From the IMG/VR virus record IMGVR_UViG_3300042894_007411: 64,000 nt of DNA, one strand, 5' to 3'. Shown here one piece after another: positions 74 to 30,296 of this stretch; position 1 is the stretch's first letter; every line of letters begins with the position of its first letter. The notes beneath the pieces were generated by a model. The model worked only from the letters and a program-made list of their open reading frames with translations, had not been told where the DNA came from and made no database searches. The DNA is from a virus. Lineage: Duplodnaviria > Heunggongvirae > Uroviricota > Caudoviricetes. A program made the translations under genes and the position numbers.

Positions 74-1414
74 ATGATGTTTGCCAAAATGTTCATGGTT
101 AACGACTCTGCTATTTTAAATCCATTTAACACAGATTATTTCTTTTGGGTAGATGGGGGTTTAACCAACACGGTTCCTAAAGGATATTTTACAAAAGATG
201 ATGTTTTAAAAAATCTACCTAGATTTGTGATAAAACACAACGATAAATTTATTCAAATTTCTTATCCTTATACAGCAAACGAAGAAATACATGGATTTGA
301 AAGGAAAGCCATGGCATCTTATTGTGGGGTTGACTATGTGAATTATGTTTGTCGTGGTGGGTTTTTTGGAGGTTCTAAGGAAAGAATACACGAGATCAAT
401 TCTCTGTATTATTCGATCATGTCTAAAACTTTACACGCCGGTTACATGGGAGCTGATGAGTGTTTGTTTACCATCCTATCACACCAATATCCAGAGTTGA
501 CCCATCGTTTTGAGATAGAGGGAAACGGATTGGTGTGGCCTTTTTTTGAAGAACTTAAACATTACTCAGAGGAAAAGATAAAACTTGATTCGTCTTTTTT
601 GAATCCTGAAAACTGTGGCTTATATGTAATTGGATTCAATAGTCCAAGTCAGTTTCAAACCTTAATTCAATCAATGATGGATTATGATCCAGATTTCATC
701 CGAAAGCCCATCAAAATTCTTTTGAATAATTCCACTGATTCCAGCACTACTCCAGAGTATGAAAAATTGTGTTTAGATTATGGATTCTCCCACGTGAAGA
801 TGGATAATCTAGGAATTTGTGGGGGTAGACAGTGGATAGCAGAAGATGCGGCAGAAAGAGAATTTGATTTTTATTTTTTCTTTGAGGATGACATGTTTTT
901 CTATCCAAAAGAGGGGGAAAGGTGTAGAAATGGGTTTAACCGTTTTGTGTCTGGATTGTATCAAAAATCTTTAGAAATTATCAAAGAAAACAATTTTGAT
1001 TTTCTGAAGTTGAATTATTCCGAATTCTTTGGCGATAACGGTACCCAGTGGTCGTGGTATAATGTACCCCAGAACATCAGAGAGAAATTTTTCCCAGAAA
1101 AACCTAATTTACCTAAAATAGGACAAGATCCCAATGCTCCTAAGACCGAATACAAAAATATTAGATCTCATAAAGGAATTCCTTATGTAAACGGTGATAT
1201 CTATTATTGCAATTGGCCTCAAATTGTAAGTAAGACAGGAAACCAAAAGATGTTTTTAAACACAAAGTGGGCGAGGCCATACGAGCAAACTTGGATGTCC
1301 TATATGTTCCAAGAAATGAAAGATGGAAATCTGTACGCCGGTCTTTTACTTCTAACCCCCACTGAACACAACAGGTTCGAACACTACGACGGCAAGTTAA
1401 GGAAAGAAAGTTAG
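74..1414 (+). CDS. hypothetical protein (reading frame is open back to window start; may be 5'-partial)
   Basis: 446-aa ORF; no recognisable motif; frame has no stop between nt 2 and 74. Confidence 0.45.
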   Translation: MMFAKMFMVNDSAILNPFNTDYFFWVDGGLTNTVPKGYFTKDDVLKNLPRFVIKHNDKFIQISYPYTANEEIHGFERKAMASYCGVDYVNYVCRGGFFGGSKERIHEINSLYYSIMSKTLHAGYMGADECLFTILSHQYPELTHRFEIEGNGLVWPFFEELKHYSEEKIKLDSSFLNPENCGLYVIGFNSPSQFQTLIQSMMDYDPDFIRKPIKILLNNSTDSSTTPEYEKLCLDYGFSHVKMDNLGICGGRQWIAEDAAEREFDFYFFFEDDMFFYPKEGERCRNGFNRFVSGLYQKSLEIIKENNFDFLKLNYSEFFGDNGTQWSWYNVPQNIREKFFPEKPNLPKIGQDPNAPKTEYKNIRSHKGIPYVNGDIYYCNWPQIVSKTGNQKMFLNTKWARPYEQTWMSYMFQEMKDGNLYAGLLLLTPTEHNRFEHYDGKLRKES

Positions 1415-1476
1415 ATTTTCATAATTCTTAATTTTAATTTAACATAATTTAACAATTCCGAAAATACATACACGGA

Positions 1477-2190
1477 ATGAAAACTCTTGTTATTTCCGAC
1501 GTCCATATTGGATCCAAAGGTTGCTCCTCTGAGGAACTTCTTTATTTGTTGAAAGATCAGTCATTCCACCGTTATATTTTGGTTGGTGATATTATCGATG
1601 GTTGGCTCTTCAAAAAATACAAAAGATTTACCTACGATCACGCTCGTTTAATTCGAAGATTTTTAAAACTCTCAAAAACAAAAGAAATCATTTGGATCGC
1701 CGGAAATCACGATGAATTTCTCAGAAAATATTTGCCTATGGAGTTGGGGAATATTAGAATTGTAGACGAATGGATTGAATCTGGAATTTGGTTCTGTCAC
1801 GGAGACAAATATGATGGAGTGGTTAAAATGAGGTGGCTTGCCCAATTGGGGGGATTGGGATATGATTTGGCAATTGTCATTGATAGAACATTGAAAAAAA
1901 TGGGATTCAAAAGATCTCTGTCTAAGTATTTAAAGGATAATGTCAAGGCGGCAGTTAAATTTATGACAGACTTTGAGAAAGAGATGGCGAGACAGGCCGA
2001 AAAAAGAGGTTGTCACACCGTGGTGTGTGGACACATACATAATCCAGAATTGAAGGAAATTGGCAAAATCAGATATATTAACACAGGGGATTGGATCGAA
2101 AACAACTCCTATCTGATTTTGAATAAAAATTATTGTTCCCTTTACTCCCATGGAAGAGAAATTGACAATTGTTATTCCCTGCAAAAATGA
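1477..2190 (+). CDS. calcineurin-like metallophosphoesterase
   Basis: Motifs DVHIG, GDIIDGW, GNHDEF, GHIHNP (MPP signature blocks). Confidence 0.7.
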   Translation: MKTLVISDVHIGSKGCSSEELLYLLKDQSFHRYILVGDIIDGWLFKKYKRFTYDHARLIRRFLKLSKTKEIIWIAGNHDEFLRKYLPMELGNIRIVDEWIESGIWFCHGDKYDGVVKMRWLAQLGGLGYDLAIVIDRTLKKMGFKRSLSKYLKDNVKAAVKFMTDFEKEMARQAEKRGCHTVVCGHIHNPELKEIGKIRYINTGDWIENNSYLILNKNYCSLYSHGREIDNCYSLQK

Positions 2191-2857
2191 GGAAAAGTAC
2201 ATTTTTGCCACCCTGGAAAGTTTGGCCAGACAAAATATAGGATCCACCCAAATTTATCTGGCGGATGCTAATTCTACAGATTTAACTGTTTCTCGGGCCA
2301 AGATGGCTTCATTTCTTTTCAATTTGAATTTGAAAATCATTCCTGGTGGTAAGGTTGCAGAGGGTAGAAACACCGGAGCTTCAATGGCAAAAACCCCGTA
2401 CGTTTTATTCCTTGATGCCGACGTTACTTTCACTCCACAAATGAATTTGAATTCTTGTGTTCAAAAAATGGACGGAAAAATCAAATTGATGTCTACAACT
2501 CCAGTTTCAAGAACAGAGGGAGATTGGAAGGCTGAAATTTTGTTTTGTCTCAACCGGTGGTGTACGATCTTGATAAGTCAAAAAGAACCGTTCTCTGTGG
2601 GTTCTTTTACCCTAGTAGAATTAGAATCTTTTTGGTCAAAGGGTGGTTTTGATATAGAGGTAAAACACACAGAAGATTGGCTTTTTTCCCGTCAATTCGA
2701 ACCCGGAGAGTTTTGCCTTATTCCAAATTTAATTACCCAGGATTCAAGACGTTTTAAAAGATTTGGTTACCTTAGAATGGCCAATCTCGTGATTCGAAAT
2801 TGGAAGAATCGAAAGAACAGAGAACATTTTTTAAAGGAAGCAGGGTACTGGATTTGA
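2150..2857 (+). CDS. GT2-like glycosyltransferase
   Basis: N-terminal 'LTIVIPCKNEEKYI...' and 'YVLFLDADVTF' resemble GT-A/GT2 signature; 41-nt overlap with upstream gene. Confidence 0.5.
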   Translation: MEEKLTIVIPCKNEEKYIFATLESLARQNIGSTQIYLADANSTDLTVSRAKMASFLFNLNLKIIPGGKVAEGRNTGASMAKTPYVLFLDADVTFTPQMNLNSCVQKMDGKIKLMSTTPVSRTEGDWKAEILFCLNRWCTILISQKEPFSVGSFTLVELESFWSKGGFDIEVKHTEDWLFSRQFEPGEFCLIPNLITQDSRRFKRFGYLRMANLVIRNWKNRKNREHFLKEAGYWI

Positions 2858-2869
2858 GATATATAAAAA
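2858..2869 (+). promoter_or_regulatory. GATATATAAAAA box abutting start codon
   Basis: Identical motif -12..-1 of ATG at 2870; same motif precedes 3511, 4278, 5021. Confidence 0.4.
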
Positions 2870-3496
2870 ATGAAACATCTGATTCCATTTAGGATCTACG
2901 AATCCCAGAAGGCTTCAGGACTTACTCGAAGTCAAGAGGAATTCTTGAACAAATACACCGAAGAAACATGGTCTGTTAATCCATCGACCGGTCTGGTGGA
3001 TGTTCAAGGGGATTTTTTTTGTTACGATCGAGGCCTGAAATCCCTGTCAGGCATATCGTTCGGACATGTGAGTGGGGATTTCTACTGTGGTAAAAACAAA
3101 TTGGCCTCCCTAGAAGGATCACCCCAGACGGTGGGTGGGGGTTTCTATTGTCAGGGAAACGACCTGACCTCCCTGGAAGGAGCACCACAAGAAATAAATG
3201 GTCGATTTCTTTGTGATGAATTTGAATTAATCAAGGGTAAATGGAACATGCGAGGATGGCTGGAGGTTCTGAACACAGGAACTCCAGAAGACAAAAAATT
3301 GATTTCCACCCTTCCGTGGCTCCAACTGGACTGGTGGAACTTGGAACTCCAACGGGATCCAGGGAAAACAGTTCATCTGTTGTCCACCATGTGGAATGAC
3401 ATGCCAAAGGACATGCAATCTGCAATCAAGATTCCTAAAGGATATGAAGGTGATTTTGAATTGTTTTCTGGATTTGACGAGCTGGGGTTGTTTTAA
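2870..3496 (+). CDS. LRR-like repeat protein, 'MKHLIPFRIYE' family member 1
   Basis: ~22-aa repeats 'NxLxSLEGAPQxVGGxFxC'; conserved N- and C-termini shared with 3511 and 4278 genes. Confidence 0.6.
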   Translation: MKHLIPFRIYESQKASGLTRSQEEFLNKYTEETWSVNPSTGLVDVQGDFFCYDRGLKSLSGISFGHVSGDFYCGKNKLASLEGSPQTVGGGFYCQGNDLTSLEGAPQEINGRFLCDEFELIKGKWNMRGWLEVLNTGTPEDKKLISTLPWLQLDWWNLELQRDPGKTVHLLSTMWNDMPKDMQSAIKIPKGYEGDFELFSGFDELGLF

Positions 3497-3498
3497 AG

Positions 3499-3510
3499 GA
3501 TATATAAAAA
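3499..3510 (+). promoter_or_regulatory. GATATATAAAAA box abutting start codon
   Basis: Motif immediately upstream of ATG 3511. Confidence 0.4.
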
Positions 3511-4263
3511 ATGAAACATCTGATTCCATTTAGGATCTACGAAGCACAGACTACTTCAGGTCTTACGAAGAGACAGGTTAAATTCTTAAACAAATACACA
3601 ACTGGAGCCTGGTCTGTTAATCCAACGACAGGTTTGGTGGATGTTCAAGGGAATTTTTTTTGTTATTATCAATATCTGAAATCCCTGTCAGGCATATCTT
3701 TCGGTCATGTAAATGGGAATTTCAACTGTAACACCAACCAACTGACTTCTCTGGAAGGAGCACCAAATACGGTGAGTGAAAATTTCGTTTGTTTCAACAA
3801 CCGGCTGACCTCCCTGGAAGGAGCACCTCAGACGGTGGGTAATTATTTCGATTGTTCCCTCAACCAACTCCAGACCCTGGAAGGAGCACCTCAAAGAGTG
3901 GGTGATAGTTTCGATTGTTCCAGAAACGAACTCCGATCCCTGGTAGGAGCACCTCATACGATAAACGGGGATTTTCTTTGTGACGAATTCAAATTAGATC
4001 CAGGCAAATGGAACATGGAAGGATGGCTGGAGGTTCTGAACACAGGAACTCCACAAGCCAAAAAATTGATTCTCACCCTCCCATGGCTCCAACCGGACTG
4101 GTGGAACTTGGAACTCCAAAGGGATCCAGGTAAAACAGTTCATCTTTTGGGGTCTGCATGGAACCATATGCCAAAGGAAATGCAATCTGCAATCAAGATT
4201 CCTAAAGGATATGAAGGTGATTTCGAATTGTTTTCTGGATTCGATGAGTTGGGCTTGTTTTAG
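3511..4263 (+). CDS. LRR-like repeat protein, family member 2 (more repeats)
   Basis: Same termini as member 1; five 'SLEGAPxTV' repeats. Confidence 0.6.
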   Translation: MKHLIPFRIYEAQTTSGLTKRQVKFLNKYTTGAWSVNPTTGLVDVQGNFFCYYQYLKSLSGISFGHVNGNFNCNTNQLTSLEGAPNTVSENFVCFNNRLTSLEGAPQTVGNYFDCSLNQLQTLEGAPQRVGDSFDCSRNELRSLVGAPHTINGDFLCDEFKLDPGKWNMEGWLEVLNTGTPQAKKLILTLPWLQPDWWNLELQRDPGKTVHLLGSAWNHMPKEMQSAIKIPKGYEGDFELFSGFDELGLF

Positions 4264-4265
4264 AG

Positions 4266-4277
4266 GATATATAAACC
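4266..4277 (+). promoter_or_regulatory. GATATATAAACC box abutting start codon
   Basis: Motif immediately upstream of ATG 4278. Confidence 0.4.
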
Positions 4278-5009
4278 ATGAAACACATACTACCCTTTAA
4301 GATCTACGAATCACAATCAATGTCTTCTAGTTTAACACCACAGCAGGAAACTCTCTTGAATTTTTGTACAAAAAAAGGAAAATGGAGCGTGAATCCAACA
4401 ACAGGTTTGGTGGACATTAATGGTGATTTCAAGTTGGCCTCAGATATGTTTATCCAAAATGATCAACTTCACATTAAACCAACAAAAAGTTTTTTAGGAA
4501 TCAGATTTGGAAATGTCGATGGGAAATTTGATTGTGTCGGCAATGAACTCCGATCCTTGGAAGGATCACCGCAGAAGGTTGGTGGAGAATTTTGGTGTTA
4601 CAGAAACAATCTACAATCCTTGAAAGGAGGACCACGAACGGTTGGTGGAGGTTATGCATGTCAATTCAACGAACTCCAATCCTTGGAAGGAGCACCACTG
4701 GAGGTTGGTGGTTTGGGATTTCAGTGTGATGAATTCAAATTAGATAAGGACAGTTGGAACTTACGGGGTTGGATAGAGGTTTTAGAAACAGGAACCAAAA
4801 AGGCAAAGGATCTGATCAAGACCCTGCCCTATCTCCAACCGGACTGGTGGAACTTGGAACTCCAACGGGAACCTGGAAAGATCGTTCACCTGCTGGCACA
4901 GGCGTGGAAACACATGTCTGAGGACTTCAAATCTAAAATTGAGATTCCCGAGGGATATGAGAATGACTTTGGTTTCTTTTCTGAATTTGATGAGCTGGGG
5001 TTGTTTTGA
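4278..5009 (+). CDS. LRR-like repeat protein, family member 3 (divergent)
   Basis: Shares 'SLEGxPxxVGG' repeats and C-terminal 'LPYLQPDWWNLELQRxPGK...FDELGLF'. Confidence 0.55.
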   Translation: MKHILPFKIYESQSMSSSLTPQQETLLNFCTKKGKWSVNPTTGLVDINGDFKLASDMFIQNDQLHIKPTKSFLGIRFGNVDGKFDCVGNELRSLEGSPQKVGGEFWCYRNNLQSLKGGPRTVGGGYACQFNELQSLEGAPLEVGGLGFQCDEFKLDKDSWNLRGWIEVLETGTKKAKDLIKTLPYLQPDWWNLELQREPGKIVHLLAQAWKHMSEDFKSKIEIPEGYENDFGFFSEFDELGLF

Positions 5010-5929: not shown

Positions 5930-6535
5930 TTAGTTCTTTTTTGCTTTTGCCTTCTTTGCCTGCTGATAAAGACTCTTATCGTGCATTTTTGTTGTTTTTC
6001 CACCGGTGATAAAAGAATTCACTCTTGCGTGTGCCCACTGGTCAGGTGTTGTTCCTGGACGATGTCCAACTTTCCAGGCCGCCTTTCCGCGTTTAAAAAC
6101 TTGCTTCAAGATTCCAAGAGGAAATCCACTTTTTTCTGCTTTCTTTTTTAAAGCTTTATGAGCGGGGGAACCAGGAGAGCTAACTGAACCGGCTGCAGAT
6201 CCCTCGTCCAGCGAATCCCAATCTTCACCAGATTCTTCTAGTTCAAGAAAAACTTCATATGCAGCTTCTTCAATTTCTGATCCGAATTCTTCATATACAA
6301 TTAAATTAGATTCGTATGAAACCTCTTCGCTTTCACCAAACATTTCCTTGTATTTTTTCGTGTATTTGCTTTTCTTAGTCTCAACTTTTTTACCTTTACC
6401 TGCCTTCCTACTTTTATAATCGGCATCCCAAGGACCATATGCGGAGGAATCTGAGTCCGGCTTGTCCTTATGTTTTTGGATTTCTCTCTTCATCACTTTT
6501 GGATTTTTACTCAGATACTGTTTCGGAATTTTCAT
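5930..6535 (-). CDS. conserved phage-type protein, Lys-rich N-terminus, acidic middle, basic 'AAWKVGHRPGTTPDQWAHARVNSF' C-terminus
   Basis: 201-aa ORF; biased composition; no assignable domain. Confidence 0.45.
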   Translation of the reverse strand: MKIPKQYLSKNPKVMKREIQKHKDKPDSDSSAYGPWDADYKSRKAGKGKKVETKKSKYTKKYKEMFGESEEVSYESNLIVYEEFGSEIEEAAYEVFLELEESGEDWDSLDEGSAAGSVSSPGSPAHKALKKKAEKSGFPLGILKQVFKRGKAAWKVGHRPGTTPDQWAHARVNSFITGGKTTKMHDKSLYQQAKKAKAKKN

Positions 6536-6977
6536 GAATATTATTATTTTGATTTAATTCTTCAACACAAAAAATCTCTTCTGTGTTAAAATTTTGGGGA
6601 ATACTGGGTTCTTTTTCTTTCATCTTTCTGGCCACAGTTAATTTCTCATAGATTGTTTGAATTTCTTCGTAGGTAAGGTTGCTTTTCTTCGAGTTGATAT
6701 CAACTGTACAGGATACGACGTTTCCTTCTATATATCCTTGGTCAGAATCAATCCGATCAAAAGATCTTGAAAATTGTCCTTCCTCTTCGAATCTACGCCC
6801 TGTGTAATAGCAGGTTGGATGGGAAAGTAATTCTTTAACTGTTTGAAAGCTGAGATCGAAATGCAGACCTCGGTCCTGTGCGCTCTGAAAGATTTTTAAC
6901 ATCTTTCGGGCAACTTCTAAATCGGTAATGTGGGAGGATCTGTGATGTTTGTGGGTTGGTTTTCTTTTTCCTTTCAT
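6507..6977 (-). CDS. HNH endonuclease-like protein
   Basis: 'CYYTGRRF...SFDRIDSDQGYIEGNVVSC...N..K' resembles HNH_3-type motif. Confidence 0.5.
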   Translation of the reverse strand: MKGKRKPTHKHHRSSHITDLEVARKMLKIFQSAQDRGLHFDLSFQTVKELLSHPTCYYTGRRFEEEGQFSRSFDRIDSDQGYIEGNVVSCTVDINSKKSNLTYEEIQTIYEKLTVARKMKEKEPSIPQNFNTEEIFCVEELNQNNNIHENSETVSE

Positions 6978-6994
6978 GGTTGAAGTTTGTTCTC

Positions 6995-8212
6995 CTATAT
7001 ATCAGGAAAGAGAACACTTCTGATTCGCGGGATTGATCCCCAGCAAGTTGTATAGGGCGGGGTTAGAAAATCACGTCTCATCTGCCAATCTTGGGATGTC
7101 GGTTCATTAACCTTCCTAGACTGGATGGTATCACGCCACATTTCGATTTGCTCCTGCCCAGATGTTGTCAAATCGCCCAAATAAACTCCTCCCTTTCGGT
7201 ATTTAATTTTGGAATCAAACCCACCAATAAGCAACTGCTGAACAGAAGCCCAAATTTGATCATCATTGTTGGTTCTGGATAGAAATTTGTGGGAAAAACT
7301 TTTGGAATAGTAAAAATTATCTTTGTGTGGGTCGTTTGCAAGAAAAAGAACAACATATCCGGCGGACAAACCTTCAGATTTCAATTTTGTCACCACACTT
7401 TTCGTGTACAGTTCAATGGCCTTTTGCACCTCGTCAAAATTGCGGGTTCCTCTTCCAAATGTACGTGAAGTGGAAATATTTTTTCTTCGTTTGAATTTTG
7501 TCTCTACATCGTGGCATCTCATCCCAAGAAGTTCCTTGTGAGTTCGAAGTCCCACCACGGTCATATTTTTTTTCACCCACTCCGGTGACAAAGACATAAA
7601 ATCATGAACACTAGAGCATCCAACCTGATTCAATTTGATTTCGCTTTGCCTACCTATTCCCCATATATCAGAGAGAGCAATTTGGCGACCCTGTTTTTGA
7701 AAAAATTCACCGGAATCTTTCATGAAATAAATTCCGGAGGAGTCTTTGGCCATTTTGTTGGCCACCTTGGCCAAAGTCTTGGTGGAAGCTACACCAATAG
7801 AAATGGGAATTCCCGTCCAACGTAAAACCTGGGATCTGACGTGGGTTAAAAAATTTTCCATCTCAGAAGGATCCACGTGATCTAAATTCATGAATACCTC
7901 ATCGATAGAATAAATCTCAATGTGTGGTATAAAAGTTCGGATTGCTTCAACCACTCTCTCTGACATGTCTGCATACAAAGTGTAGTTGGAGGACAGAAGA
8001 ACAACTCCTTCTTTTTGAATAAGATCTCTAATTTTAAAAACCTTCTGTCCCATCTTGATGCCTAATTTTTTGGCCTCCGGTGATCTAGCAATAGCGCTTC
8101 CATCATTGTTGCTGAGAACCAATACAGGTTTTCCTCTCAAAGAAGGATTAAAGACTCTTTCACAGGAAACGTAAAAGTTATTACAGTCCGCAAGTCCAAT
8201 CCAACGGGTCAT
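6995..8212 (-). CDS. umuC: Y-family (translesion) DNA polymerase UmuC
   Basis: N-terminus 'ADCNNFYVSCERVFNPSLRGKPVLVLSNNDG' is the canonical UmuC/DinB signature; ATGA overlap with umuD-like gene. Confidence 0.85.
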   Translation of the reverse strand: MTRWIGLADCNNFYVSCERVFNPSLRGKPVLVLSNNDGSAIARSPEAKKLGIKMGQKVFKIRDLIQKEGVVLLSSNYTLYADMSERVVEAIRTFIPHIEIYSIDEVFMNLDHVDPSEMENFLTHVRSQVLRWTGIPISIGVASTKTLAKVANKMAKDSSGIYFMKDSGEFFQKQGRQIALSDIWGIGRQSEIKLNQVGCSSVHDFMSLSPEWVKKNMTVVGLRTHKELLGMRCHDVETKFKRRKNISTSRTFGRGTRNFDEVQKAIELYTKSVVTKLKSEGLSAGYVVLFLANDPHKDNFYYSKSFSHKFLSRTNNDDQIWASVQQLLIGGFDSKIKYRKGGVYLGDLTTSGQEQIEMWRDTIQSRKVNEPTSQDWQMRRDFLTPPYTTCWGSIPRIRSVLFPDI

Positions 8213-8523
8213 GTTCTTTTAGTTCTTGTGATTACACCCCAATGTTCTTCTGGATTTCCCTCTCCAAATCGGTATAAAACAAAGTGTCCCAATTCTGTTA
8301 CCCCCACGCACATCTGACCTTCTTTTGGTTCTACCTTTCTATTCACCTCTATAATGTCTCCAGTTGTGAACTGGCCATAGCTAATTCCTCCGCCAACCCT
8401 AAAGAAGAAGGTGAAGTAAGGGTCTGGACCTAGAGGATAGAAATAGAGCCTATCTTGAACGTAATCTGTTGCGGGAGAAGAAAATCCAGTAGTTTTGGTT
8501 TTAACTTGGGCGAAAGATTCCAT
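8209..8523 (-). CDS. umuD: UmuD'-like S24 peptidase-fold protein (short N-arm, degenerate Ser-Lys dyad)
   Basis: 'GFSSPATDYVQDRL...' aligns to UmuD 'GFPSPAADYVEQRI'; starts near UmuD Gly25; GDSM position reads GGIS by eye. Confidence 0.6.
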   Translation of the reverse strand: MESFAQVKTKTTGFSSPATDYVQDRLYFYPLGPDPYFTFFFRVGGGISYGQFTTGDIIEVNRKVEPKEGQMCVGVTELGHFVLYRFGEGNPEEHWGVITRTKRT

Positions 8524-8646
8524 CTGGTACAGAACAGCCTCAAATATAATATATACTCCTTGTTATCCATAATATTTTTCACTTTTAGCTTTGATATATA
8601 AAAAAATAACTCAAAACCTCCTATTGACTTCCAAAAAATTAAATCT
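8524..8646. promoter_or_regulatory. divergent AT-rich promoter region with TATATA boxes
   Basis: 'aatataatatatact' and 'gatatataaaaaaa' between divergent umuD and LysM genes. Confidence 0.4.
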
Positions 8647-9881: not shown

Positions 9882-10829
9882 ATGCAACACTTGACAAATT
9901 TTTCCAGGTTTACTTTTTTACTGGAAAATTCATCTGGAAAAGAAAAAGAAAATTCAGTAAACTCCTCTTACGAGAAAAGATTCTCTTGTATTCCAAAAAA
10001 AGTTTTACCTTTTGTGGTAAGTGTGGCAAAAGATGTGGAAGGTTTCAAACAAAAATTGGGCGTAGATCTTCCAAACTTAATTTTATTAACTAAAGCCACG
10101 GTTGGAATTATGGGAAGAGAAACACAATTTGGGAATTATTCAGAGATTACTGATATAGCTTCAGAATTTGCCCGTGAGGAGTTGGATTTAGGGCCTGTTA
10201 TGGATTGGGGATTAAAAACTTTCTCTACAAAAACAGGTAAAAAAGTAACTCAAAGTTTGGGGATGGGACAAATAACTCCAGAATTTTGGTCACGGTACAA
10301 TTTAGAAAAAAAAATCGGTTTGTATGACGAATCTTTCGATGCTGAAAGTCAAGGACTAGCTGTTTTATATGGTTTAGCAGACAGATATAAATTGGGTTTA
10401 CAAAAAGGTCTTAAGAAACAACCTTCCGTTAATCCTGTGTTACAAAAATATGGTTTAATTACTGGAATTAAAGGCACCGGAAATAATGCTTTAGACTTAG
10501 CCATCCTCGGACACAACATGGGAGAAAAAATTATGACTTTGTGGTGCAAAACCGATCATCCTTTGTATGCAGCACCCAAAGAAGCAGGCCCAAAGTATAG
10601 TCCATTCCAAAACAAGGAAAGTTTTAATCCGAAAGGTAAATTACTTGCTAAGATTCAGGACCCTAGCCTGAAAAAATTTCCAGGAGAATTAACAGTCAAA
10701 TTGAATGAGGTTATCCCGAATTTTTTCCCTAATTTGAAGGGCCCAGGTCATACCGCAATAGGTTACGTGGAGAAAGTTGCCAAGTATATGAAAAAGTTTT
10801 CTTGTTTAGACAGTTTAGGCACTAAATAA
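9882..10829 (+). CDS. lysozyme-like / lytic transglycosylase-like protein (weak)
   Basis: 'GRETQFGN...SLGMGQITPEF' loosely resembles the SLT E...GLMQ motif; spacing atypical. Confidence 0.35.
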   Translation: MQHLTNFSRFTFLLENSSGKEKENSVNSSYEKRFSCIPKKVLPFVVSVAKDVEGFKQKLGVDLPNLILLTKATVGIMGRETQFGNYSEITDIASEFAREELDLGPVMDWGLKTFSTKTGKKVTQSLGMGQITPEFWSRYNLEKKIGLYDESFDAESQGLAVLYGLADRYKLGLQKGLKKQPSVNPVLQKYGLITGIKGTGNNALDLAILGHNMGEKIMTLWCKTDHPLYAAPKEAGPKYSPFQNKESFNPKGKLLAKIQDPSLKKFPGELTVKLNEVIPNFFPNLKGPGHTAIGYVEKVAKYMKKFSCLDSLGTK

Positions 10830-11667
10830 AATCTCCAACAATAAAAACTGTAGGAGTAGGAACATTGCCAATTTTCCTTTGTATATCTCCGATAATTTGA
10901 TATTCGTAAGTATTTAATCCATCCCTAACTCCAACTTCGATAGAAGCACCGCCGTCAAACATCATAGCGTTAACAAGACCTAAATCACGGGCTACATGAT
11001 AAAATTCTTTTACTGTGCAAGCCGTGAGTCCGATGGTGTGAACCACACAAAAATTACCTTTGGAATCTTTACCCACAATTAATCGTGGAAGTTTTTTTCT
11101 GGCCCATCTCTGATTGAAAATTCTAGAACAAGGGTTTCCATTAACAATAATCGGAGTATGTGTCTGGGCGGAGTATAAAACTTTGTTTGGTCTTCTGCCA
11201 AAGTAAAGCCTTGGGTTCTTTCCGTTAGAAGTAAAATAAGCACCACCAGGTCTTTTTTTGGTGTAATTTTTGCCGTCTATTTTGACCTCCCCGATTGGAG
11301 TTCCATTTTTGGTAAAATAGTTTGCATTGATCCAGATATCGTGAGATTCGTGGTTTTTATTGACAACCCCAAATTTGGCCGAGTTTTTATTGATCCGGAT
11401 AAAATTAACATGGCTTCGGGTCAAACCATGATTTCCAATTTTGATTTTTTTAATTTCAACTTTTTGGGTTGTGAAATCTCGCCCCCAGATGTATTGATAA
11501 CAGGAAAAAAAAGCTATCAATATCAGAACAAGAAAAAATATTCTGCGTTTCATAAATTTAATTTTAACAAATATACGACAGAAACTCCACAAAAAACCCT
11601 CCGAAAAATTGGAGGGTTTTAAAATTAACCAAAAAGTAATTTGTGAAATTTGTTGAACTCTGACCAT
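10822..11667 (-). CDS. secreted/lipoprotein-like protein with phosphodiester-glycosidase-like C-terminus
   Basis: N-terminal hydrophobic 'IFFLVLILIAFFSC'; 'NAMMFDGGASIEVGV' resembles DGGGS motif of the NAGPA-type family. Confidence 0.4.
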   Translation of the reverse strand: MVRVQQISQITFWLILKPSNFSEGFLWSFCRIFVKIKFMKRRIFFLVLILIAFFSCYQYIWGRDFTTQKVEIKKIKIGNHGLTRSHVNFIRINKNSAKFGVVNKNHESHDIWINANYFTKNGTPIGEVKIDGKNYTKKRPGGAYFTSNGKNPRLYFGRRPNKVLYSAQTHTPIIVNGNPCSRIFNQRWARKKLPRLIVGKDSKGNFCVVHTIGLTACTVKEFYHVARDLGLVNAMMFDGGASIEVGVRDGLNTYEYQIIGDIQRKIGNVPTPTVFIVGDFI

Positions 11668-12509
11668 CTATGGTCAAGCCCGATCCTACCTCCATTGATC
11701 TTCTCAGTAACCACAGTTAAGACCTCTTTTGTGGCACCTTTGTCGCAGAATCCCCAAATTTTATTTTTGTGAAAGAAAAAAGCGGCAGAGGTCAGTGGAT
11801 ATTTGGTGGCGACCAACTCTGGATTGGCCAAAATATCATCTTCAACCATTTTGTCGAACTCCGAATAGTTTGATTTTCCAGTAAGCTGGATATAACCACG
11901 ACCAGCATATTTCCATCCATCTCCAGATGCTTCATCGCCATTTCCCATTCTGGAAGAATAAACTTTATTAGCAATTTTCTGTGGATTTTTGGCGTAAGAT
12001 TCGTTCAAATTACCAGGAAAATATTTTGGAAAAATTTGTTTTAATCTTTCGGCAGAATAATTTAAATTTTCTTTGACCGATTTGAACCCTCCGGATTCAT
12101 GAGAAGTTTGAGAAAGAAAGTGTGCCAATCTCAAATTGGATGTAATTCCGAATTTAGCTCCAAATTCCGATATTTCGGACAAAATTTTATCCGGAACATG
12201 CCCTTTGAGTTTTTCTAAAGATAGATCCAGTGTTTCCGCGGGCTTTGAGACAGGTTCGGATGTTTTTTCTGAGGCTGAACTAACTGGGGTTGGTGAGGGT
12301 CCAAACAATTTTGACCAGGTTCCATTACCAACTATTCCATCAGCAGTCAAACCGTTGGCTGCTTGCCACGCTTTTACTTTTGCTTCAGTACCTGGGCCGA
12401 AGTGACCATCTGCTGCCAGGCCTAATTTTGTTTGGAGTTTTTTTACATCTTCTCCTTTAGATCCGACTTTAAGTAACATAAGATAAATTTTTTTCTGTAT
12501 ATATTCCAA
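11625..12509 (-). CDS. endolysin: PG_binding_1 domain + GH19/lysozyme-like catalytic domain
   Basis: 'LKVGSKGEDVKKLQTKLGLAADGHFGPGTEAKVKAWQAANGLTADGIVG' (PG-binding); 'GDGWKYAGRGYIQLTGKSNY' (GH19/COG3179 signature). Confidence 0.75.
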   Translation of the reverse strand: MEYIQKKIYLMLLKVGSKGEDVKKLQTKLGLAADGHFGPGTEAKVKAWQAANGLTADGIVGNGTWSKLFGPSPTPVSSASEKTSEPVSKPAETLDLSLEKLKGHVPDKILSEISEFGAKFGITSNLRLAHFLSQTSHESGGFKSVKENLNYSAERLKQIFPKYFPGNLNESYAKNPQKIANKVYSSRMGNGDEASGDGWKYAGRGYIQLTGKSNYSEFDKMVEDDILANPELVATKYPLTSAAFFFHKNKIWGFCDKGATKEVLTVVTEKINGGRIGLDHRWSEFNKFHKLLFG

Positions 12510-14669: not shown

Positions 14670-15800
14670 TTAATTAGATAACGGCATTTTTATGCTTGGG
14701 TGGGATTGATAATTCTCCAATTTCCAGAAATCTGGTTTAAATTGTTCGATCTTTTGAGAAAATGGTATATCCAGATCCATCAAATAATGGTACTCGTCTT
14801 TCCCTAACATTTGTGGTAAAGAATAAGGCTTTCTTGTTAGCTGATCTTTAACCCCATCTATTTGATTCAAGTAAATGTGACAGTCTCCCATATTTGAAAT
14901 GAGTTCATATGGTACCATACCAACCTCTTTAGCTATAATTGTTAATAATAGCCCATAAGATGCCAAATTAAAAGGGGTCCCTAGTGGAACATCTTGACTT
15001 CTGGCATTGCACATTAAAGAGATTGCTCTGGTTGGGATATTAGATTTAGAAAGTTCAATGTGTATTTCATGCTCGTTCATGTTTTCTGAATTTGAAGTGC
15101 AGTCAAAAAACTCTTCAAAGTAACTTAATCGTTCTTTAACGCTCAACTCTCTTGTATAAACTTGAAATCCATAATGACAAGGTGGAAGAGTCATCGAATC
15201 CAATTCACCTACATTCCAAGCTGAAACCATCAATCGTCTTGAGTCTGGGTTTGTTTTGAGTTCGTTGATTAGGTTTTGGATTTGGTCTATTTTATTGTTT
15301 GGCCAAAATAAAGGTAGTTTATTTGGTCCAAAGTCATCTTGCCAACTTCTCCACTGCTTACCATAGATTGGACCTAAATCACCCCACTTCTTAGCAAACT
15401 CATCATCTGTTTTAATTTTGTTGATAAATTCTTCTTTTGGATAAATTAGTTGTTTTTCTAATATCTGTATTGATATCTCACTTCTGTCACCCTCAGTCCT
15501 GATAGCATGTTTATGTTTCTTTACATATGCTTTGTAACAATCACCATCCCAAATATGACAATCATTATCAACAAGGTATTTAATATTTGTTTCTCCTCTT
15601 AAAAACCAAAGTAACTCAGTTACAATTGACTTCCAATGCATTTTTTTGGTTGTGAGTAATGGAAACCCCTCACTCATTTTATGACGGATTTGTCTACCAA
15701 ATACTGAAATAGTACCAGTACCCGTTCTATCTTTCTTTTCCACTCCATTATCTAATATATCTTGGAGTAGTGATTGATATTGTTTGTCTAAATTATTCAT
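14670..15800 (-). CDS. thyA: thymidylate synthase (ThyA) with two insertions
   Basis: 'DRTGTGT', 'FPLLTTKK', 'DSRRLMVSAWN', 'LPPCH', 'PFNLASYGLL', 'GDCHIY' all present; 376 aa vs ~265-290 typical. Confidence 0.85.
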   Translation of the reverse strand: MNNLDKQYQSLLQDILDNGVEKKDRTGTGTISVFGRQIRHKMSEGFPLLTTKKMHWKSIVTELLWFLRGETNIKYLVDNDCHIWDGDCYKAYVKKHKHAIRTEGDRSEISIQILEKQLIYPKEEFINKIKTDDEFAKKWGDLGPIYGKQWRSWQDDFGPNKLPLFWPNNKIDQIQNLINELKTNPDSRRLMVSAWNVGELDSMTLPPCHYGFQVYTRELSVKERLSYFEEFFDCTSNSENMNEHEIHIELSKSNIPTRAISLMCNARSQDVPLGTPFNLASYGLLLTIIAKEVGMVPYELISNMGDCHIYLNQIDGVKDQLTRKPYSLPQMLGKDEYHYLMDLDIPFSQKIEQFKPDFWKLENYQSHPSIKMPLSN

Positions 15801-26917: not shown

Positions 26918-27685
26918 TTATCCAATATTAGAAAAAAAATTCGTCAGTAAATTTTTTCTTTCCTCTTCTGTCATTTTTCGGGGAAGATCATAGTCTGATT
27001 TAGAATTTTCCTCAAGCCATTCATGTAAATCTTCGATAGTTTCACACAGTACATTTCCAGAAGAATCTGTCATACGCAAATCTTTTCTCGTTCCCCATCC
27101 TTTTTCGTAACACCACCAATTGAAAGTTTCTAAACCTTCTTTTCCGTAGATGCTTCCGATTAACATGGAAACAACACTTTGGAGTTCATCCTCAAAATTT
27201 CCCAAATCAATCCCATAATAACAAACTGCCCGGAATCTTTCTTGAGAGGATTTAAGTTTAAAAATAATTTCTTTAAAAACTTCGAAATTAATTTTATGTG
27301 AAAACATACTTTTTTTCATCTTTTGAATTAAAGGATGAAGATCCAAATGAGAAAATTCCTTATAAGGCAAGAAAATTTTTTCCTTGTACTTCAAACCATG
27401 TTTCACAGCATTAACACCGTGAATAACAGTTGAATGATCCCTTCCAATTAAAGTTCCAATTTTACCGAAAGAAAATATGTGACCAAATTTTTCTCTCAAA
27501 ACGAACATGAGAAGGTGACGTGCTGCAACCAGGTGTTGGGTCTTTTTTTTGTTTTTAAGTTCGTCCAGACTGAATCCAAAAACCCTATTTACCTCATTAA
27601 CGTAGTGGTCAAAAATTAAAAGCTCTAACGTTGAATGGTACATTTTAAAAAAGATATGGATTACTATGGACGAATGGCTAAACAA
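26918..27685 (-). CDS. DnaA domain-IV-like HTH DNA-binding protein
   Basis: 'VFGFSLDELKNKKKTQHLVAARHLLMFVLRE...GRDHSTVIHG' resembles DnaA C-terminal DNA-binding domain. Confidence 0.5.
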   Translation of the reverse strand: MFSHSSIVIHIFFKMYHSTLELLIFDHYVNEVNRVFGFSLDELKNKKKTQHLVAARHLLMFVLREKFGHIFSFGKIGTLIGRDHSTVIHGVNAVKHGLKYKEKIFLPYKEFSHLDLHPLIQKMKKSMFSHKINFEVFKEIIFKLKSSQERFRAVCYYGIDLGNFEDELQSVVSMLIGSIYGKEGLETFNWWCYEKGWGTRKDLRMTDSSGNVLCETIEDLHEWLEENSKSDYDLPRKMTEEERKNLLTNFFSNIG

Positions 27686-28551: not shown

Positions 28552-29064
28552 TTATTTCCAGTCAATTTTAGGACAATACTTGTAATAGGTTGCTTTAACC
28601 ATTTCAACAGTAATATTAGAACTTTTTTCTTCTTTCGGTAGATTTTTCCTCCCCCATTTTCTTTCTTTTCTTTCTTTTATTTTATCTTGGATGTATTCAA
28701 TAAACCAAGCACAACCCCAAGTCAAACCTACCGCCCATACAAAAAAACCGTAAATAATTAAATTTTCTAAAATAGATCCTTTATGTGGTGTGTGCCAAAA
28801 TAACATAATGGGACTGAGAGCTGCAATTAAAAGCAAAAGTATAAACCAAGAAATGAAACTTATCCAAATTCTATTACCAAGTGATTCGTTATACGTATCT
28901 TTATCTATAATAACATAAGGAAGGGAAAAAATAAATAGTGGGATTGCGAATACATAAGCTATTACCAATTTCCAAAAGTATGGACATAAGTTGGTTGGAA
29001 GTTCACTTGTTCTGTAAAACCAACGGAAGAGTTTTGCTGAGATTGAGTTTTTGTTGAGTTTCAT
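28552..29064 (-). CDS. polytopic membrane protein
   Basis: Four hydrophobic segments. Confidence 0.45.
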   Translation of the reverse strand: MKLNKNSISAKLFRWFYRTSELPTNLCPYFWKLVIAYVFAIPLFIFSLPYVIIDKDTYNESLGNRIWISFISWFILLLLIAALSPIMLFWHTPHKGSILENLIIYGFFVWAVGLTWGCAWFIEYIQDKIKERKERKWGRKNLPKEEKSSNITVEMVKATYYKYCPKIDWK

Positions 29065-29435
29065 ACTTTTACAAGTTTAAATTTTTCACCACCAATTACA
29101 ATTTCTTTACCTTCGCAAGATTTGGGTCGGTTGTCTTTGATTATACCTTTTGAATTCTCAAAGTAGATTAGATTACCTTGAGAATCCCATTCCTGCTTTA
29201 ACCAATACCCAGTTGAATCCTCAAAGTAGATTCTATTACCTTGAGAATCCCATTCCTTCTTTGCCCAATATTTCTTTGAATTCTCATAGTAGATTTCATT
29301 ACCTTGAGAATCGTATTCACTCTTTACCCAACGTTTATTTGAATTCTCAAAGTAGATTTTTTTGCCATTCGTGTCTAGGATTACCAATGTACCATTGGTC
29401 TTGAAATCCCATTTAATTTGTTGTGCGATTGTCAT
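29061..29435 (-). CDS. MORN-variant-like repeat protein, array A member
   Basis: 'MTIAQQIKWDFKTNG' start; repeats 'EYDSQGNxIYYENSxGYWxK'; end 'KFKLVKV'; ATGA overlap. Confidence 0.6.
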   Translation of the reverse strand: MTIAQQIKWDFKTNGTLVILDTNGKKIYFENSNKRWVKSEYDSQGNEIYYENSKKYWAKKEWDSQGNRIYFEDSTGYWLKQEWDSQGNLIYFENSKGIIKDNRPKSCEGKEIVIGGEKFKLVKV

Positions 29436-29743
29436 ACTTTTACAAGTTTAAATTTTTCACCATCGATTTCTACTACTTTATTTTCGCAAGATTTAGGTCG
29501 GTTGTCTATGATTTTACCATTTGAATTCTCATAGTAGATTCTATTACCTTGAGAATCCCATTCTCGTTTTGACCAATATCCATCTGAATCATGATAGTAG
29601 GTTTGGTTACCTTGAGAATCGTATTCACACTTTCCCCAATATCCATCTGAATTCTCATAGTAGATTCTATTACCATTCTTGTCTTTAATTTCCAAGTAAC
29701 CGTTGGTCTCAAAGTCCCAGTTGATTTGTTGTCCTATTGTCAT
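29432..29743 (-). CDS. MORN-variant-like repeat protein, array A member
   Basis: Same family. Confidence 0.6.
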   Translation of the reverse strand: MTIGQQINWDFETNGYLEIKDKNGNRIYYENSDGYWGKCEYDSQGNQTYYHDSDGYWSKREWDSQGNRIYYENSNGKIIDNRPKSCENKVVEIDGEKFKLVKV

Positions 29744-29988
29744 ACTTTTACAAGTTTAAATTTTTCACCATCGATTTCTACTACTTTGTTTTCACAAGAC
29801 TTGGGTCGGTTGTCTCTGATTACGCCATATGAATTCTCATAGTAGATTTCTTTTCCTTGGGAATCCCACTCCTTCTTTGACCAATGTCCATTTGAATTCT
29901 CCCAGTAGATTTCTTTACCATTCTTGTCTTTAATTTCCAAGTTACCGTTGGCCTTGAAATCCCATTTGATTTGTTGTGCGATTGTCAT
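29740..29988 (-). CDS. MORN-variant-like repeat protein, array A member (short)
   Basis: Same family. Confidence 0.6.
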   Translation of the reverse strand: MTIAQQIKWDFKANGNLEIKDKNGKEIYWENSNGHWSKKEWDSQGKEIYYENSYGVIRDNRPKSCENKVVEIDGEKFKLVKV

Positions 29989-30296
29989 ACTTTTACAAGT
30001 TTAAATTTTTCACCATCAATTACGATTTCTTTATTTTCACAAGGCTTGGGTCGGTTGTCTTTGATTACACCACGTGAATTCTCAAGGTAGATTTCATTCC
30101 CTTCAGAATCCCATTCCTCCTTTACCCAATCTCCCTTTGAATCCCCAGAGTAGATACAATAGCCATTAGAATCGTATTCTTGTTTTGTCCAATACCCATA
30201 TGAAGCCTCTCGGTAGATTTCTTTACCATTCTTGTCTTTGATTACCAAGGAACCATTGGTTTCAAAGTCCCATTTGATTTGTTGTGCTATTGTCAT
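29985..30296 (-). CDS. MORN-variant-like repeat protein, array A member
   Basis: Same family. Confidence 0.6.
   Translation of the reverse strand: MTIAQQIKWDFETNGSLVIKDKNGKEIYREASYGYWTKQEYDSNGYCIYSGDSKGDWVKEEWDSEGNEIYLENSRGVIKDNRPKPCENKEIVIDGEKFKLVKV

Follow-up and report, generated by a model that had tools for sequence, protein, structure and literature searches.

Three co-directional ORFs lie on the minus strand at 8523..8209, 8212..6995, and 6977..6507 of the window (the whole 64-kb stretch of viral DNA that was analysed), as an earlier sequence-only reading had placed them. They correspond to a gene of 104 aa for a putative non-proteolytic accessory subunit of the S24 fold, here called mini-UmuD' (8209..8523), a UmuC-type Y-family polymerase gene of 405 aa (6995..8212) recognised by Pfam, NCBIfam, and PHROG matches, and an HNH-fold-like backbone gene of 156 aa (6507..6977). 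In the window the start of umuC and the stop of umuD' share 4 bp (ATGA), and the two genes likewise touch or overlap in the loci L006, L009, and L020; the coupled position directly upstream of umuC is that of a umuD' gene. The 156-aa gene begins 17 bp past the umuC stop. On the other side, umuD' and a LysM gene diverge from an intergenic region of 123 bp (8524..8646), presumed to hold the promoter. A sigma-70 consensus scan found no minus-strand site in this region, and no CTGT-N8-ACAG box was seen in it by eye. The source phage is a huge phage from freshwater.

The 156-aa neighbour and the extent of the cassette

The sequence-only reading took 6507-8523 for a GC-rich islet of three genes, umuD'-umuC-HNH, brought in by the adjacent HNH gene as a homing endonuclease. 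The stretch does have a GC content of 0.400 against 0.353 +/- 0.028 in windows of its size, but 6.7% of these reach or exceed its value. umuD' and umuC account for the mild excess (0.41-0.42; gene-wise z 1.4-1.7), while the 156-aa gene is average (0.363, z 0.27), and more than ten other genes of the window are equally GC-rich. Overall, GC content weakly supports an islet.

The identity of the supposed HNH gene did not survive closer comparison. The 156-aa protein matched no Pfam family at E <= 0.1. Its motif is FDRID, with D-R where D-H would be expected, so that an invariant Arg75 occupies the position of the catalytic general-base His of HNH (beta-beta-alpha-Me) nucleases, and conserved Cys provide two of the four usual ligands. 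A resemblance in fold is nevertheless suggested. The spacing C..G / D-x-I-D / G-Y..N / C..N..K is like that of the HNH motif, and PHROG HNH and endonuclease VII (1035) profiles match with E values of 1e-10 to 1e-25, PHROG 1400 'Srd' at 6.6e-25 and PHROG 3118 'HNH endonuclease' at 1.8e-19. With a model of pLDDT 72.8, Foldseek returned Gme HNH (4h9d) and PacI (3ldy) at E 0.03-0.05, probability 0.84-0.98, and TM 0.3-0.46. A genuine free-standing HNH protein (PF01844) occurs in L006 and is quite unlike the 156-aa protein.

The three genes are also adjacent in relatives at about 50% identity. However, 693 homologues of the 156-aa protein were found, 52-83% identical in a sample of 40 and almost unchanged in their core; the gene has a dN/dS of 0.10, and its copies in L014 and L016/L017 have no umuC closer than 5 kb. 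In L014 it adjoins, upstream of a DUF5824 gene, the homologue of the 214-aa gene that precedes umuD' in L006; thus umuD'-umuC of L006 sits between two backbone genes that form an adjacent pair, 17 bp apart, in L014. This synteny supports a cassette of two genes, umuD'-umuC, and not a three-gene islet. Therefore, the 156-aa gene lies outside the cassette and is implausible as its mobiliser; it is a strongly conserved, single-copy backbone gene without the sporadic, mobile distribution of a homing element. An islet mobilised by an HNH gene is contradicted by the GC content, conservation, and distribution of this gene, and we regard it as highly improbable.

The short UmuD' homologue

The 104-aa protein matches PHROG 811 'UmuD-like' (E 1.4e-7). 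It reaches 28.5 bits against the NCBIfam UmuD subfamily (PRK10276) and 17.9 bits against HumD (NF051876), below the respective cut-offs of 110 and 120, and Pfam PF00717 gave no match. A family profile of 15 members was aligned to the solved UmuD/UmuD' 8gmt, 1umu, and 1i4v with E values of 1.7e-9 to 1.4e-8 (1.7e-9 in the hmmsearch against UmuD/UmuD' of the PDB). In the AF2 model the core has a pLDDT of 73-93, and the best Foldseek matches are the lambda cI C-terminal domain, UmuD', and LexA (TM 0.5-0.58).

Both residues of the protease dyad are replaced. Residues G44-G45-G46-I47-S48 (8380..8394, minus strand) mark the lost nucleophile Ser: in the profile alignment G44-G45-G46-I47 falls on UmuD G58-D59-S60-M61, in line with the earlier placing by eye of GGIS at GDSM, and position 46 varies across the family (G/S/A/T). 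F81-V-L-Y84-R-F (8266..8283, minus strand) falls on UmuD F94-T-V-K97-K-L, so that the general-base Lys is changed to a Tyr that is invariant in 15/15 sequences. Leu or Tyr had been proposed for this position, and both MAFFT and hmmalign place Y84 on K97 (the hmmalign placement sets the window protein against the family profile and counts from UmuD T95, which is profile position 82). The profile alignment does not restore a Ser-Lys dyad. The bond corresponding to the scissile one is Thr12-Gly13 (Ser-Gly in some relatives) and not Ala/Cys-Gly; in the 150 top representatives, a T/S-Gly bond accompanies a dead dyad (40 without Ser and Lys) and an A/C-Gly bond an intact one (50). Since the Ser/Lys dyad and the Ala/Cys-Gly site are both absent, RecA-stimulated self-cleavage would not be needed, as had been suggested, nor would it be possible. 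A short linker, GEGNPEEH (residues 87-94; 8242..8265, minus strand), replaces most of UmuD 96-127. The first HMM domain ends at residue 82 of the query (UmuD 95) and the second begins at residue 95 (UmuD 128), and MAFFT agrees with the HMM on a net deletion of about 20 residues from the S24 core. [quoted passage not shown] On sequence and profile evidence, the UmuD-like protein appears to be a short, non-proteolytic UmuD' homologue.

The loss of both catalytic residues and the internal deletion could also be expected of a functionless, degenerating umuD remnant. However, dN/dS is 0.13-0.19, and conservation of the arm is strict. Among 15 mini-UmuD' sequences with identities as low as 50%, 33 positions do not vary. 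Linkage of the gene to umuC is constant, and the mini form persists in sublineages between which UmuC identity is only 36-50%. A decaying relic is contradicted by these selection data and hardly deserves consideration.

The N-terminus of the protein recurs in 14 homologue clusters. An in-frame stop lies 13 codons upstream of the called start, with no ATG, GTG, or TTG in between and no alternative start ahead of the arm; the start is not mis-called. The N-terminal arm (residues 7-21, VKTKTTGFSSPATDY; 8461..8505, minus strand) has Thr12-Gly13 in place of the Cys24-Gly25 cleavage site of UmuD, and its GFSSPATDY at residues 13-21 agrees with the UmuD' arm, GF(P)SPAxDY. The claim that the ORF starts about where UmuD' begins holds only in part: a conserved leader of 12 residues, MESFAQVKTKTT, precedes Gly13, so that the arm Gly is not a free N-terminus and no self-cleavage apparatus exists to expose it. 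The description of the protein as pre-processed is likewise apt in that self-cleavage would be unnecessary, but not in that the leader is retained. In the close family G13, F14, S15, S16, P17, A18, D20, and Y21 are invariant (8/9 arm positions; not T19), as are F4, T9, and T11 of the leader; in the diverse mini forms T11, G13, F14, P17, A18, and Y21 are. Conservation of the arm extends for 6 or more residues ahead of the Gly, and the pattern [IV]x[TSA]xT[TS]GF is found in all mini forms listed.

This leader raises the question of a brake or pro-form, i.e. a small protein that acts like a non-cleavable full-length UmuD and either holds UmuC inactive, as a UmuD2C-type checkpoint or replication brake possibly directed at host replication, or must be trimmed by another protease for the polymerase to work. 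In E. coli, uncleaved UmuD blocks translesion synthesis and single-residue changes at the UmuD' N-terminus, the exact form of which matters, alter mutagenesis (PMC11791011); uncleavable UmuD S60A suppresses mutagenesis (PMC3901139). Therefore, the 12-aa leader, with its invariant F4, T9, and T11, could by analogy be inhibitory or need removal. Several observations argue against it. The UmuD pro-peptide carries the TFPLF clamp motif, and the leader has neither this motif nor the length of the pro-peptide. Leaders in the clade are as short as 7 residues (MINTLTSGF), and full-size UmuD' forms with a dead dyad begin directly with MKTTGF or MAKTTGF. Conservation runs unbroken from -6 into the arm, which fits one functional arm better than a removable peptide, and Thr-Gly is no known S24 cleavage site. 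Furthermore, the catalytic residues of the adjacent UmuC are all kept under strong purifying selection, which would be odd for a pure brake. We consider a brake or pro-form unlikely.

UmuC, the RecA-NT motif, and co-variation with mini-UmuD'

UmuC had been called canonical. Its catalytic residues and little finger are indeed kept, but the RecA-NT motif of 22 residues is absent. D9 and D104-E105 fall on UmuC D6 and D101-E102; Pfam finds IMS (1.7e-37) and IMS_C (3.7e-15), PHROG 1268 matches at 3e-115, and dN/dS is 0.07. NCBIfam UmuC (PRK03609) is by far the best-scoring model at 291.5 bits, below its cut-off of 431. The match to DUF4113 is limited to profile positions 17-51 of 51, and in five clade members it runs from position 17-30 to 51, as compared with full matches in the Oslo (1-51) and Treponema (2-51) UmuCs. 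The RecA-NT motif lies at the N-terminal part of DUF4113, and RecA crosslinks to UmuC residues 361-376 (PMC6511836).

The alignment defines the deletion. The position of the beta-clamp-binding motif, QIEMW (7136..7150, minus strand), falls on QLNLF of E. coli-type UmuC. Clade relatives have QFLLF, QMALF, QGGLF, QPTLF, and QTSLF at this QxxLF motif, and QIEMW is a weaker motif than theirs. It is followed by a linker of 16 residues, RDTIQSRKVNEPTSQD (7088..7135, minus strand), where E. coli-type UmuC has 39. The gap of 22 residues lies exactly over the RecA-NT helix and strand, SEKLMEVLDQLNAKGGKGTLYFAG, of E. coli-type UmuC; it is a clean excision with nothing inserted. The C-terminal tail, WQMRRDFLTPPYTT... 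(6998..7087, minus strand), is kept, and its W376, R380, and T388-T389 are shared with E. coli-type UmuC and do not vary in the alignment. This tail is the UmuD'-binding region of UmuC (PMC6511836, PMC11791011).

The distribution of the two changes was followed in two samples of viral loci, one driven by UmuC (85 UmuCs) and one by the arm. In the first, all of the 11 UmuCs without RecA-NT (11/85) stand beside a mini-UmuD' (11/11), and none of the 74 that keep it does (0/74). In the second, complete UmuCs beside mini-UmuD' are 400-410 aa long (22/22), and the clamp-to-YTT spacing is 32 in 20/22, whereas the E. coli type has 54; L119 and L120, each of 402 aa, did not match the spacing pattern. 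At two loci with dead forms of full size, UmuC has 423 aa and a spacing of 63. RecA-NT loss in UmuC thus co-varies perfectly with the mini-UmuD' form. When the polymerase core is compared, the 11 UmuCs without RecA-NT from the first sample fall together in a single deep, monophyletic clade, whose members occur here only on viral and metagenome contigs. Therefore, the co-variation may represent a single evolutionary event and not repeated coupling.

It could be argued that a recombinase is still required and that only the RecA-NT docking mode was replaced, with host RecA acting through another surface of UmuC or with a phage UvsX/RecA-like protein encoded outside the window. UmuC has a second, state-dependent RecA contact, a crosslinking fragment apart from 361-376 (PMC6511836), and the 64 kb of the window are a fraction of contigs of this class, which measure 0.2-1 Mb. 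Large phages often encode their own recombinases. However, no member of the RecA/UvsX family was found among those ORFs of the window that were scanned, clade members also occur on viral contigs of 20-40 kb, the 22-aa excision is clean, without insertion, and the RecA-dependent step of mini-UmuD' went with it. A continuing requirement for a recombinase appears improbable to us.

Proposed function and relation to known polymerase V systems

The umuD'-umuC pair (8523..6995) is probably an SOS- and RecA-independent Pol V variant of a distinct, deep-branching clade, as judged from its sequence features. As a translationally coupled two-gene phage module, it would encode a Pol V-like translesion polymerase with a minimal UmuD' (an N-terminal arm and an SH3-like beta-barrel) as the small subunit and a catalytically intact UmuC, which retains the clamp-motif position and the UmuD'-binding tail and has lost the RecA-NT docking motif, as the large subunit. 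In the published Pol V model the UmuD' arm inserts beside the UmuC active site, and RecA-NT is the motif by which UmuC is proposed to bind RecA within the mutasome; the roles given here to arm, tail, and RecA-NT follow earlier work (PMC11791011, PMC6511836, PMC12926913). Since both elements tied to the RecA-dependent steps of Pol V, the UmuD cleavage apparatus and the RecA-NT motif, are gone, we infer that the complex would be made in active form and be independent of SOS. It may allow the phage to replicate past lesions, such as those left by UV in surface freshwater, with no need to await or rely on the SOS response of the host.

A further proposal is put forward more tentatively, as possible and somewhat short of probable. 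In this natural Pol V, RecA would be needed neither for UmuD' maturation nor for UmuC activation, and the mutasome would be constitutive and SOS-independent, with the extended T-x-T-T-G-F arm taking over part of the activating role that RecA-ATP has in E. coli. It should be noted that E. coli UmuD'2C has little activity without RecA-ATP; by analogy, the loss of RecA-NT could therefore mean a different activator instead of none.

Two RecA-dependent steps, UmuD cleavage and the transfer of RecA-ATP to UmuC, have long dominated studies of E. coli Pol V, and the mechanistic contribution of each step is debated; we know of no structure of the mutasome. In this natural, strongly conserved lineage the very elements tied to these two steps are deleted, while arm, barrel, tail, and clamp-motif position are kept. 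Therefore, it may offer a ready-made minimal system for finding out what suffices for Pol V activity. If the proposal is true, large environmental phages carry their own SOS-independent, potentially mutator, lesion-bypass polymerase, which would bear on phage UV survival and mutation rates. The literature searched gave no account of the two RecA handles being lost together, and the most recent survey of bacterial polymerases, which does not cover phages, has no UmuC group without RecA-NT (PMC12926913).

One close reference is E. coli Pol V, the UmuD'2C-RecA-ATP mutasome, with the same two-gene order and coupled translation. Its UmuC has in common with the window UmuC the Y-family core, the IMS_C little finger, the clamp-motif position, and the C-terminal tail, but also contains the RecA-NT motif that the latter lacks. 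Its UmuD' is homologous to the window small subunit, and the arm GF(P/S)SPAxDY is common to both. E. coli UmuD has Ser60/Lys97, a Cys-Gly bond, and a leader of 24 aa, whereas the window protein has neither residue, a Thr-Gly bond, and a leader of 12 aa, and is about 20 residues shorter (within UmuD 96-127).

The idea of a phage UmuD' that is born processed has a precedent in P1 HumD (NF051876), likewise a phage-encoded UmuD' homologue without a cleavable pro-peptide (McLenigan et al. 1999, as cited in PMC11541004), and the P1 record annotates it as complementing UmuD'. It has also lost Ser60 (AADSHHR for ASGDSM). However, HumD starts with M-GFPSPAADY, with no leader like that of the window protein, keeps Lys97 (RIKRY), and is of full size (129 aa), whereas the window protein has no Lys and is internally shortened. 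In addition, HumD is an orphan that uses the host UmuC, and the window protein is paired with its own RecA-NT-less UmuC. The lxr-humD regulatory region of P1 carries an annotated LexA site.

In Bacillus subtilis, YqjX/YolD with YqjW/UvrX, proposed as the Gram-positive analogue of Pol V (PMC6511836, PMC12926913), follow an analogous plan in which the gene of a small non-protease protein with an N-terminal arm and an SH3-like barrel precedes that of a UmuC-like polymerase. The likeness concerns architecture alone: the window protein has no PF08863 match in Pfam, and it is not homologous to YolD since it derives from S24/UmuD. Furthermore, YqjW/UvrX keep the RecA-NT motif, unlike the window UmuC.

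Full-size, born-processed UmuD' forms with a dead dyad, which to our knowledge are not described in the literature searched, occur in Treponema MAGs (L103-L109) and at two viral loci (L144/L145). Like the mini form, they have no Ser/Lys (GNDME, FLCRQ), lie directly upstream of umuC, and have the K-T-T-G-F arm start. They differ in that 113-114 residues follow the arm Gly, with the C-terminal part of the S24 core kept, as compared with 90-95 in the mini form, and in that their UmuCs keep the RecA-NT region (DUF4113 2-51; spacing 63).

The small UmuD-like protein and its lost dyad

Positions 6507-8523 are occupied by three co-directional ORFs on the minus strand: a UmuD-like protein of 104 aa (8523..8209), a UmuC of 405 aa (8212..6995) that shares 4 bp (ATGA) between its start and the stop of the preceding ORF, and a 156-aa protein (6977..6507) that starts 17 bp past the umuC stop. 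Upstream of the 104-aa ORF there is an in-frame stop at 13 codons with no start codon between, and no alternative start is available ahead of the N-terminal arm (the GFSSPATDY region); these two features rule out a mis-called start. The layout of the N-terminus is also identical across 14 homologue clusters (103-116 aa, 50-96% identical), and the start is genuine. Curated models match the protein weakly (PHROG 'UmuD-like', E 1.4e-7; NCBIfam UmuD, 28.5 bits against a cut-off of 110, and HumD, 17.9 bits against 120), and no match was found in Pfam. A family profile matches solved UmuD/UmuD' at E 1.7e-9, in an alignment that covers positions 12 to 82. Ser60 of the UmuD catalytic dyad corresponds to Gly46 in this profile-to-PDB alignment, a position held by G, S, A or T in the family, and Lys97 corresponds to Tyr84, which is invariant in the family, by MAFFT, by hmmalign, and by counting on from position 82 (UmuD T95). 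The scissile Cys24-Gly25 of UmuD is replaced by Thr12-Gly13, and the UmuD 96-127 segment comprises 12 residues instead of 32. The HMM-to-PDB, MAFFT and hmmalign results are concordant and none of them restores the dyad. The core observation of the sequence-only reading on the small protein is upheld. We refer to this short, internally deleted form without the dyad as mini-UmuD'.

In the AF2 model, residues 1-25, which include the arm, are disordered and a five-strand core is confident (pLDDT 73-93); the best structural matches are the lambda cI C-terminal domain, UmuD', and LexA. The dN/dS of mini-UmuD' is 0.13-0.19, indicating purifying selection, and a pseudogene is excluded by this ratio together with the conservation of the protein. 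The protein had also been proposed as a pre-processed mimic of UmuD'. It is cleavage-incompetent and keeps the arm, but a conserved leader of 12 residues precedes the arm Gly, and all mini forms are conserved from position -6 into the arm ([IV]-x-[TSA]-x-T-[TS]-G-F-x-S-P-A-x-x-Y). With this leader, the protein is not pre-processed in the literal sense.

Loss of RecA-NT and its coupling to mini-UmuD'

The UmuC had been considered canonical, and it does retain the catalytic Asp and Asp-Glu, the little finger, and the C-terminal tail (W..R..L.P.YTT). However, in the alignment to the E. coli-type UmuC of phage Oslo, exactly 22 residues, SEKLMEVLDQLNAKGGKGTLYFAG, are missing between the clamp motif and the tail in this UmuC and its relatives. 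The N-terminal part of DUF4113 is RecA-NT, the proposed RecA-docking element, and RecA crosslinks map to UmuC residues 361-376, most frequently to Ser370 (PMC6511836). The absent block is RecA-NT, and the polymerase is not canonical in this respect. As an independent check, the Pfam DUF4113 model is matched over 1-51 in Oslo UmuC and 2-51 in Treponema UmuC, whereas in five members of the RecA-NT-less clade the match begins at 17-30 and runs to 51.

The co-variation was observed in two samples. In the first, drawn by UmuC similarity (80 IMG/VR loci and five others, giving 85 UmuCs), RecA-NT is absent from 11 UmuCs, and each of these has a linked mini-UmuD' in which the arm reads T[TS]GF, the dyad is missing, and 90-95 residues follow the arm Gly. 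RecA-NT is kept in the other 74 of the 85, and where a UmuD was found with these it has at least 112 residues past the Gly. In the second sample, drawn by the arm peptide (35 loci), complete UmuCs adjoining mini-UmuD' are 400-410 aa long in 22 of 22 cases; the clamp-to-YTT spacing is 32 in 20 of them versus 54 in the E. coli type, and the spacing pattern could not be matched in the other two (L119 and L120, both 402 aa). The same sample holds two full-size dead forms (MAKTTGF...) with UmuCs of 423 aa and a spacing of 63. Among the best 150 representatives from a library of 1.84 billion proteins, 50 are of the canonical full-size type with A/C-Gly, Ser, and Lys; another 40 combine T/S-Gly with the absence of both Ser and Lys, and the deletion is also present in 21 of the 40. 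When the polymerase core alone is compared, the RecA-NT-less UmuCs fall into a single clade whose sublineages share 36-50% identity. Therefore, the coupling may reflect a single ancient event, and it has been upheld through deep divergence.

In one sublineage (L023-L025, from the first sample, and L112-L117; IMG/VR contigs of 109-321 kb), two genes are inserted between mini-umuD' and the RecA-NT-less umuC; by eye, they read as a flavodoxin-like ORF of 189 aa and a hotdog-fold thioesterase of 126 aa. The gap in L118 is shorter (364 bp).

Full-size UmuD' homologues without Ser60 and Lys97 were found in Treponema MAGs (L103-L109), a Bdellovibrionales MAG (L110), and two viral loci (L144-L145). 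They start with MKTTGF or MAKTTGF and are encoded upstream of UmuCs that retain RecA-NT; the dyad sites read GNDME and FLCRQ in Treponema, and L110 has a longer leader with an equally dead dyad. Thus, non-cleavable, born-processed UmuD' also occurs in cellular genomes. The arm-pattern scan of cellular genomes gave eight loci, all full-size dead forms adjoining UmuCs with RecA-NT; since the scan demands an exact peptide pattern, it does not prove that mini forms are absent from cells.

Composition and neighbourhood of the locus

The window comes from a very large phage found in freshwater metagenomes. Contigs of 0.2-1 Mb encode an identical 104-aa protein, and the genes around the locus are phage-like: thymidylate synthase, RNA ligase, an SbcD-like exonuclease, and LysM and chitinase-like lysins. 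No close relative was found among isolated phages, where the small protein has one weak tblastn match and UmuC reaches at most 36% identity. PADLOC defence models gave zero matches, and a sigma-70 promoter and terminator scan, which probably does not cover the host promoter type, found nothing delimiting the operon.

The three genes had been read as a GC-rich islet, possibly mobilised by the third, taken as an HNH gene. The GC content of 6507-8523 is indeed raised (0.400 versus 0.353 +/- 0.028 in windows of the same size, 6.7% of which are at least as high), with the excess in umuD' (0.419) and umuC (0.409); at 0.363, the 156-aa gene has an average GC. A GC as high as that of umuDC is reached by more than ten further genes of the window, and the gene-wise z-scores are mild (1.4-1.7 for GC, 0.45-1.28 for GC3). 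Therefore, composition alone is no evidence for an islet, and GC and codon usage give weak support for recent transfer.

The 156-aa protein has no Pfam family, and a PDB sequence search gave matches at chance level only. The PHROG profiles Srd, HNH endonuclease, and endonuclease VII match it at 1e-10 to 1e-25, the best label being 'Srd anti-sigma factor', and its AF2 model best matches Gme HNH nickase and PacI, both weakly. Its motif is C-Y-Y-T-G ... F-D-R-I-D ... G-Y..G-N-V-V-x-C ... N-x-K-K-x-N; Arg holds the catalytic-His site, and only two Cys are conserved. Between a basic N-terminus and an acidic low-complexity C-terminus, a core of ~95 residues is almost invariant. With 693 homologues on many large phage contigs (52-83% identical among 40 sampled) and a dN/dS of 0.10, it is conserved to an extent unusual among phage proteins. 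The gene is present with no umuC inside 5 kb in L016/L017 and in L014, where it lies 17 bp downstream of a homologue (37% identity, E 5e-53) of the gene preceding umuD' in L006, a relative with 75% identity. These features show that the gene is a phage-backbone neighbour and not a mobiliser, and the accessory unit is therefore a two-gene umuD'-umuC cassette.

Several other features of the surroundings were seen. In the 9995-11757 region of L006, a 92-aa ORF and a 122-aa DUF5824 ORF are separated by a free-standing HNH gene on the opposite strand (360 aa, weak PF01844 match), whereas at the corresponding place the window carries one DUF5824 gene of 201 aa (5930-6535); this looks like a homing-endonuclease insertion. 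A glycosyltransferase-like cluster (HtrL_YibB, Glycos_transf_2, GT25) and a metallophosphatase lie upstream of the locus (74-4263 and 44536-45363), and genes at 2870-5009 have a GC of 0.42-0.45, matching umuDC. Twelve paralogous ORFs of ~83-150 aa (41-73% identity) form two head-to-tail arrays of five and seven copies with 4-bp overlaps on the minus strand (29061-30688 and 39788-42058). The thymidylate synthase (14670-15800) has 376 aa yet covers only positions 29-307 of PHROG 160, implying ~90 extra residues, possibly an insertion. A protein with a DnaA C-terminal helix-turn-helix domain (PF08299, E 7.7e-15) and a 480-aa SPFH/Band 7 protein are encoded at 26918-27685 and 31268-32710.

Proposed activation and comparison with known systems

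In the published Pol V model, one UmuD' arm enters between palm and little finger beside the active site; UmuC contributes a C-terminal tail that pairs with the barrel of UmuD', and RecA is docked by RecA-NT (PMC11791011, PMC12926913). The window module retains the arm, barrel, tail, and clamp-motif position, and lacks precisely the two elements tied to the RecA dependence of E. coli Pol V. Beyond the anatomy, co-variation, and selection, which are directly observed, we infer that the two proteins form a complex, that it works without RecA, and what it does for the phage: the mini-UmuD'/UmuC complex would be produced already active, and the phage would gain SOS-independent lesion bypass. TLS in E. 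coli is blocked when UmuD stays uncleaved (PMC11791011), so the conserved leader could likewise hold activity back or have to be trimmed off. Another activator may act instead, or a phage recombinase encoded outside the window; no recombinase gene was matched among the ~30 of ~100 window ORFs profiled.

The sequence-only interpretation of the small protein is partly right, and a born-processed phage UmuD' has a precedent in P1 HumD, which, according to the P1 record and its sequence, begins MGFPSPAADY, has likewise lost the Ser at S60, and carries an annotation that it complements UmuD'. Unlike the window protein, HumD keeps Lys97, is full size, and has neither a leader nor its own UmuC. In a 2026 survey of bacterial polymerases (PMC12926913), the only groups named as wholly without RecA-NT are DinP, DinX, and two that are Pol IV-like, and among the matches listed in an incomplete search of literature mentioning RecA-NT, none concerns phage UmuC. 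YqjX/YolD with YqjW is an architectural analogue of the window module (arm and SH3-like barrel); however, it is not homologous and its polymerase retains RecA-NT. The most interesting feature of this module, which lay outside the sequence-only reading, is that a conserved phage clade has lost both RecA handles in concert.
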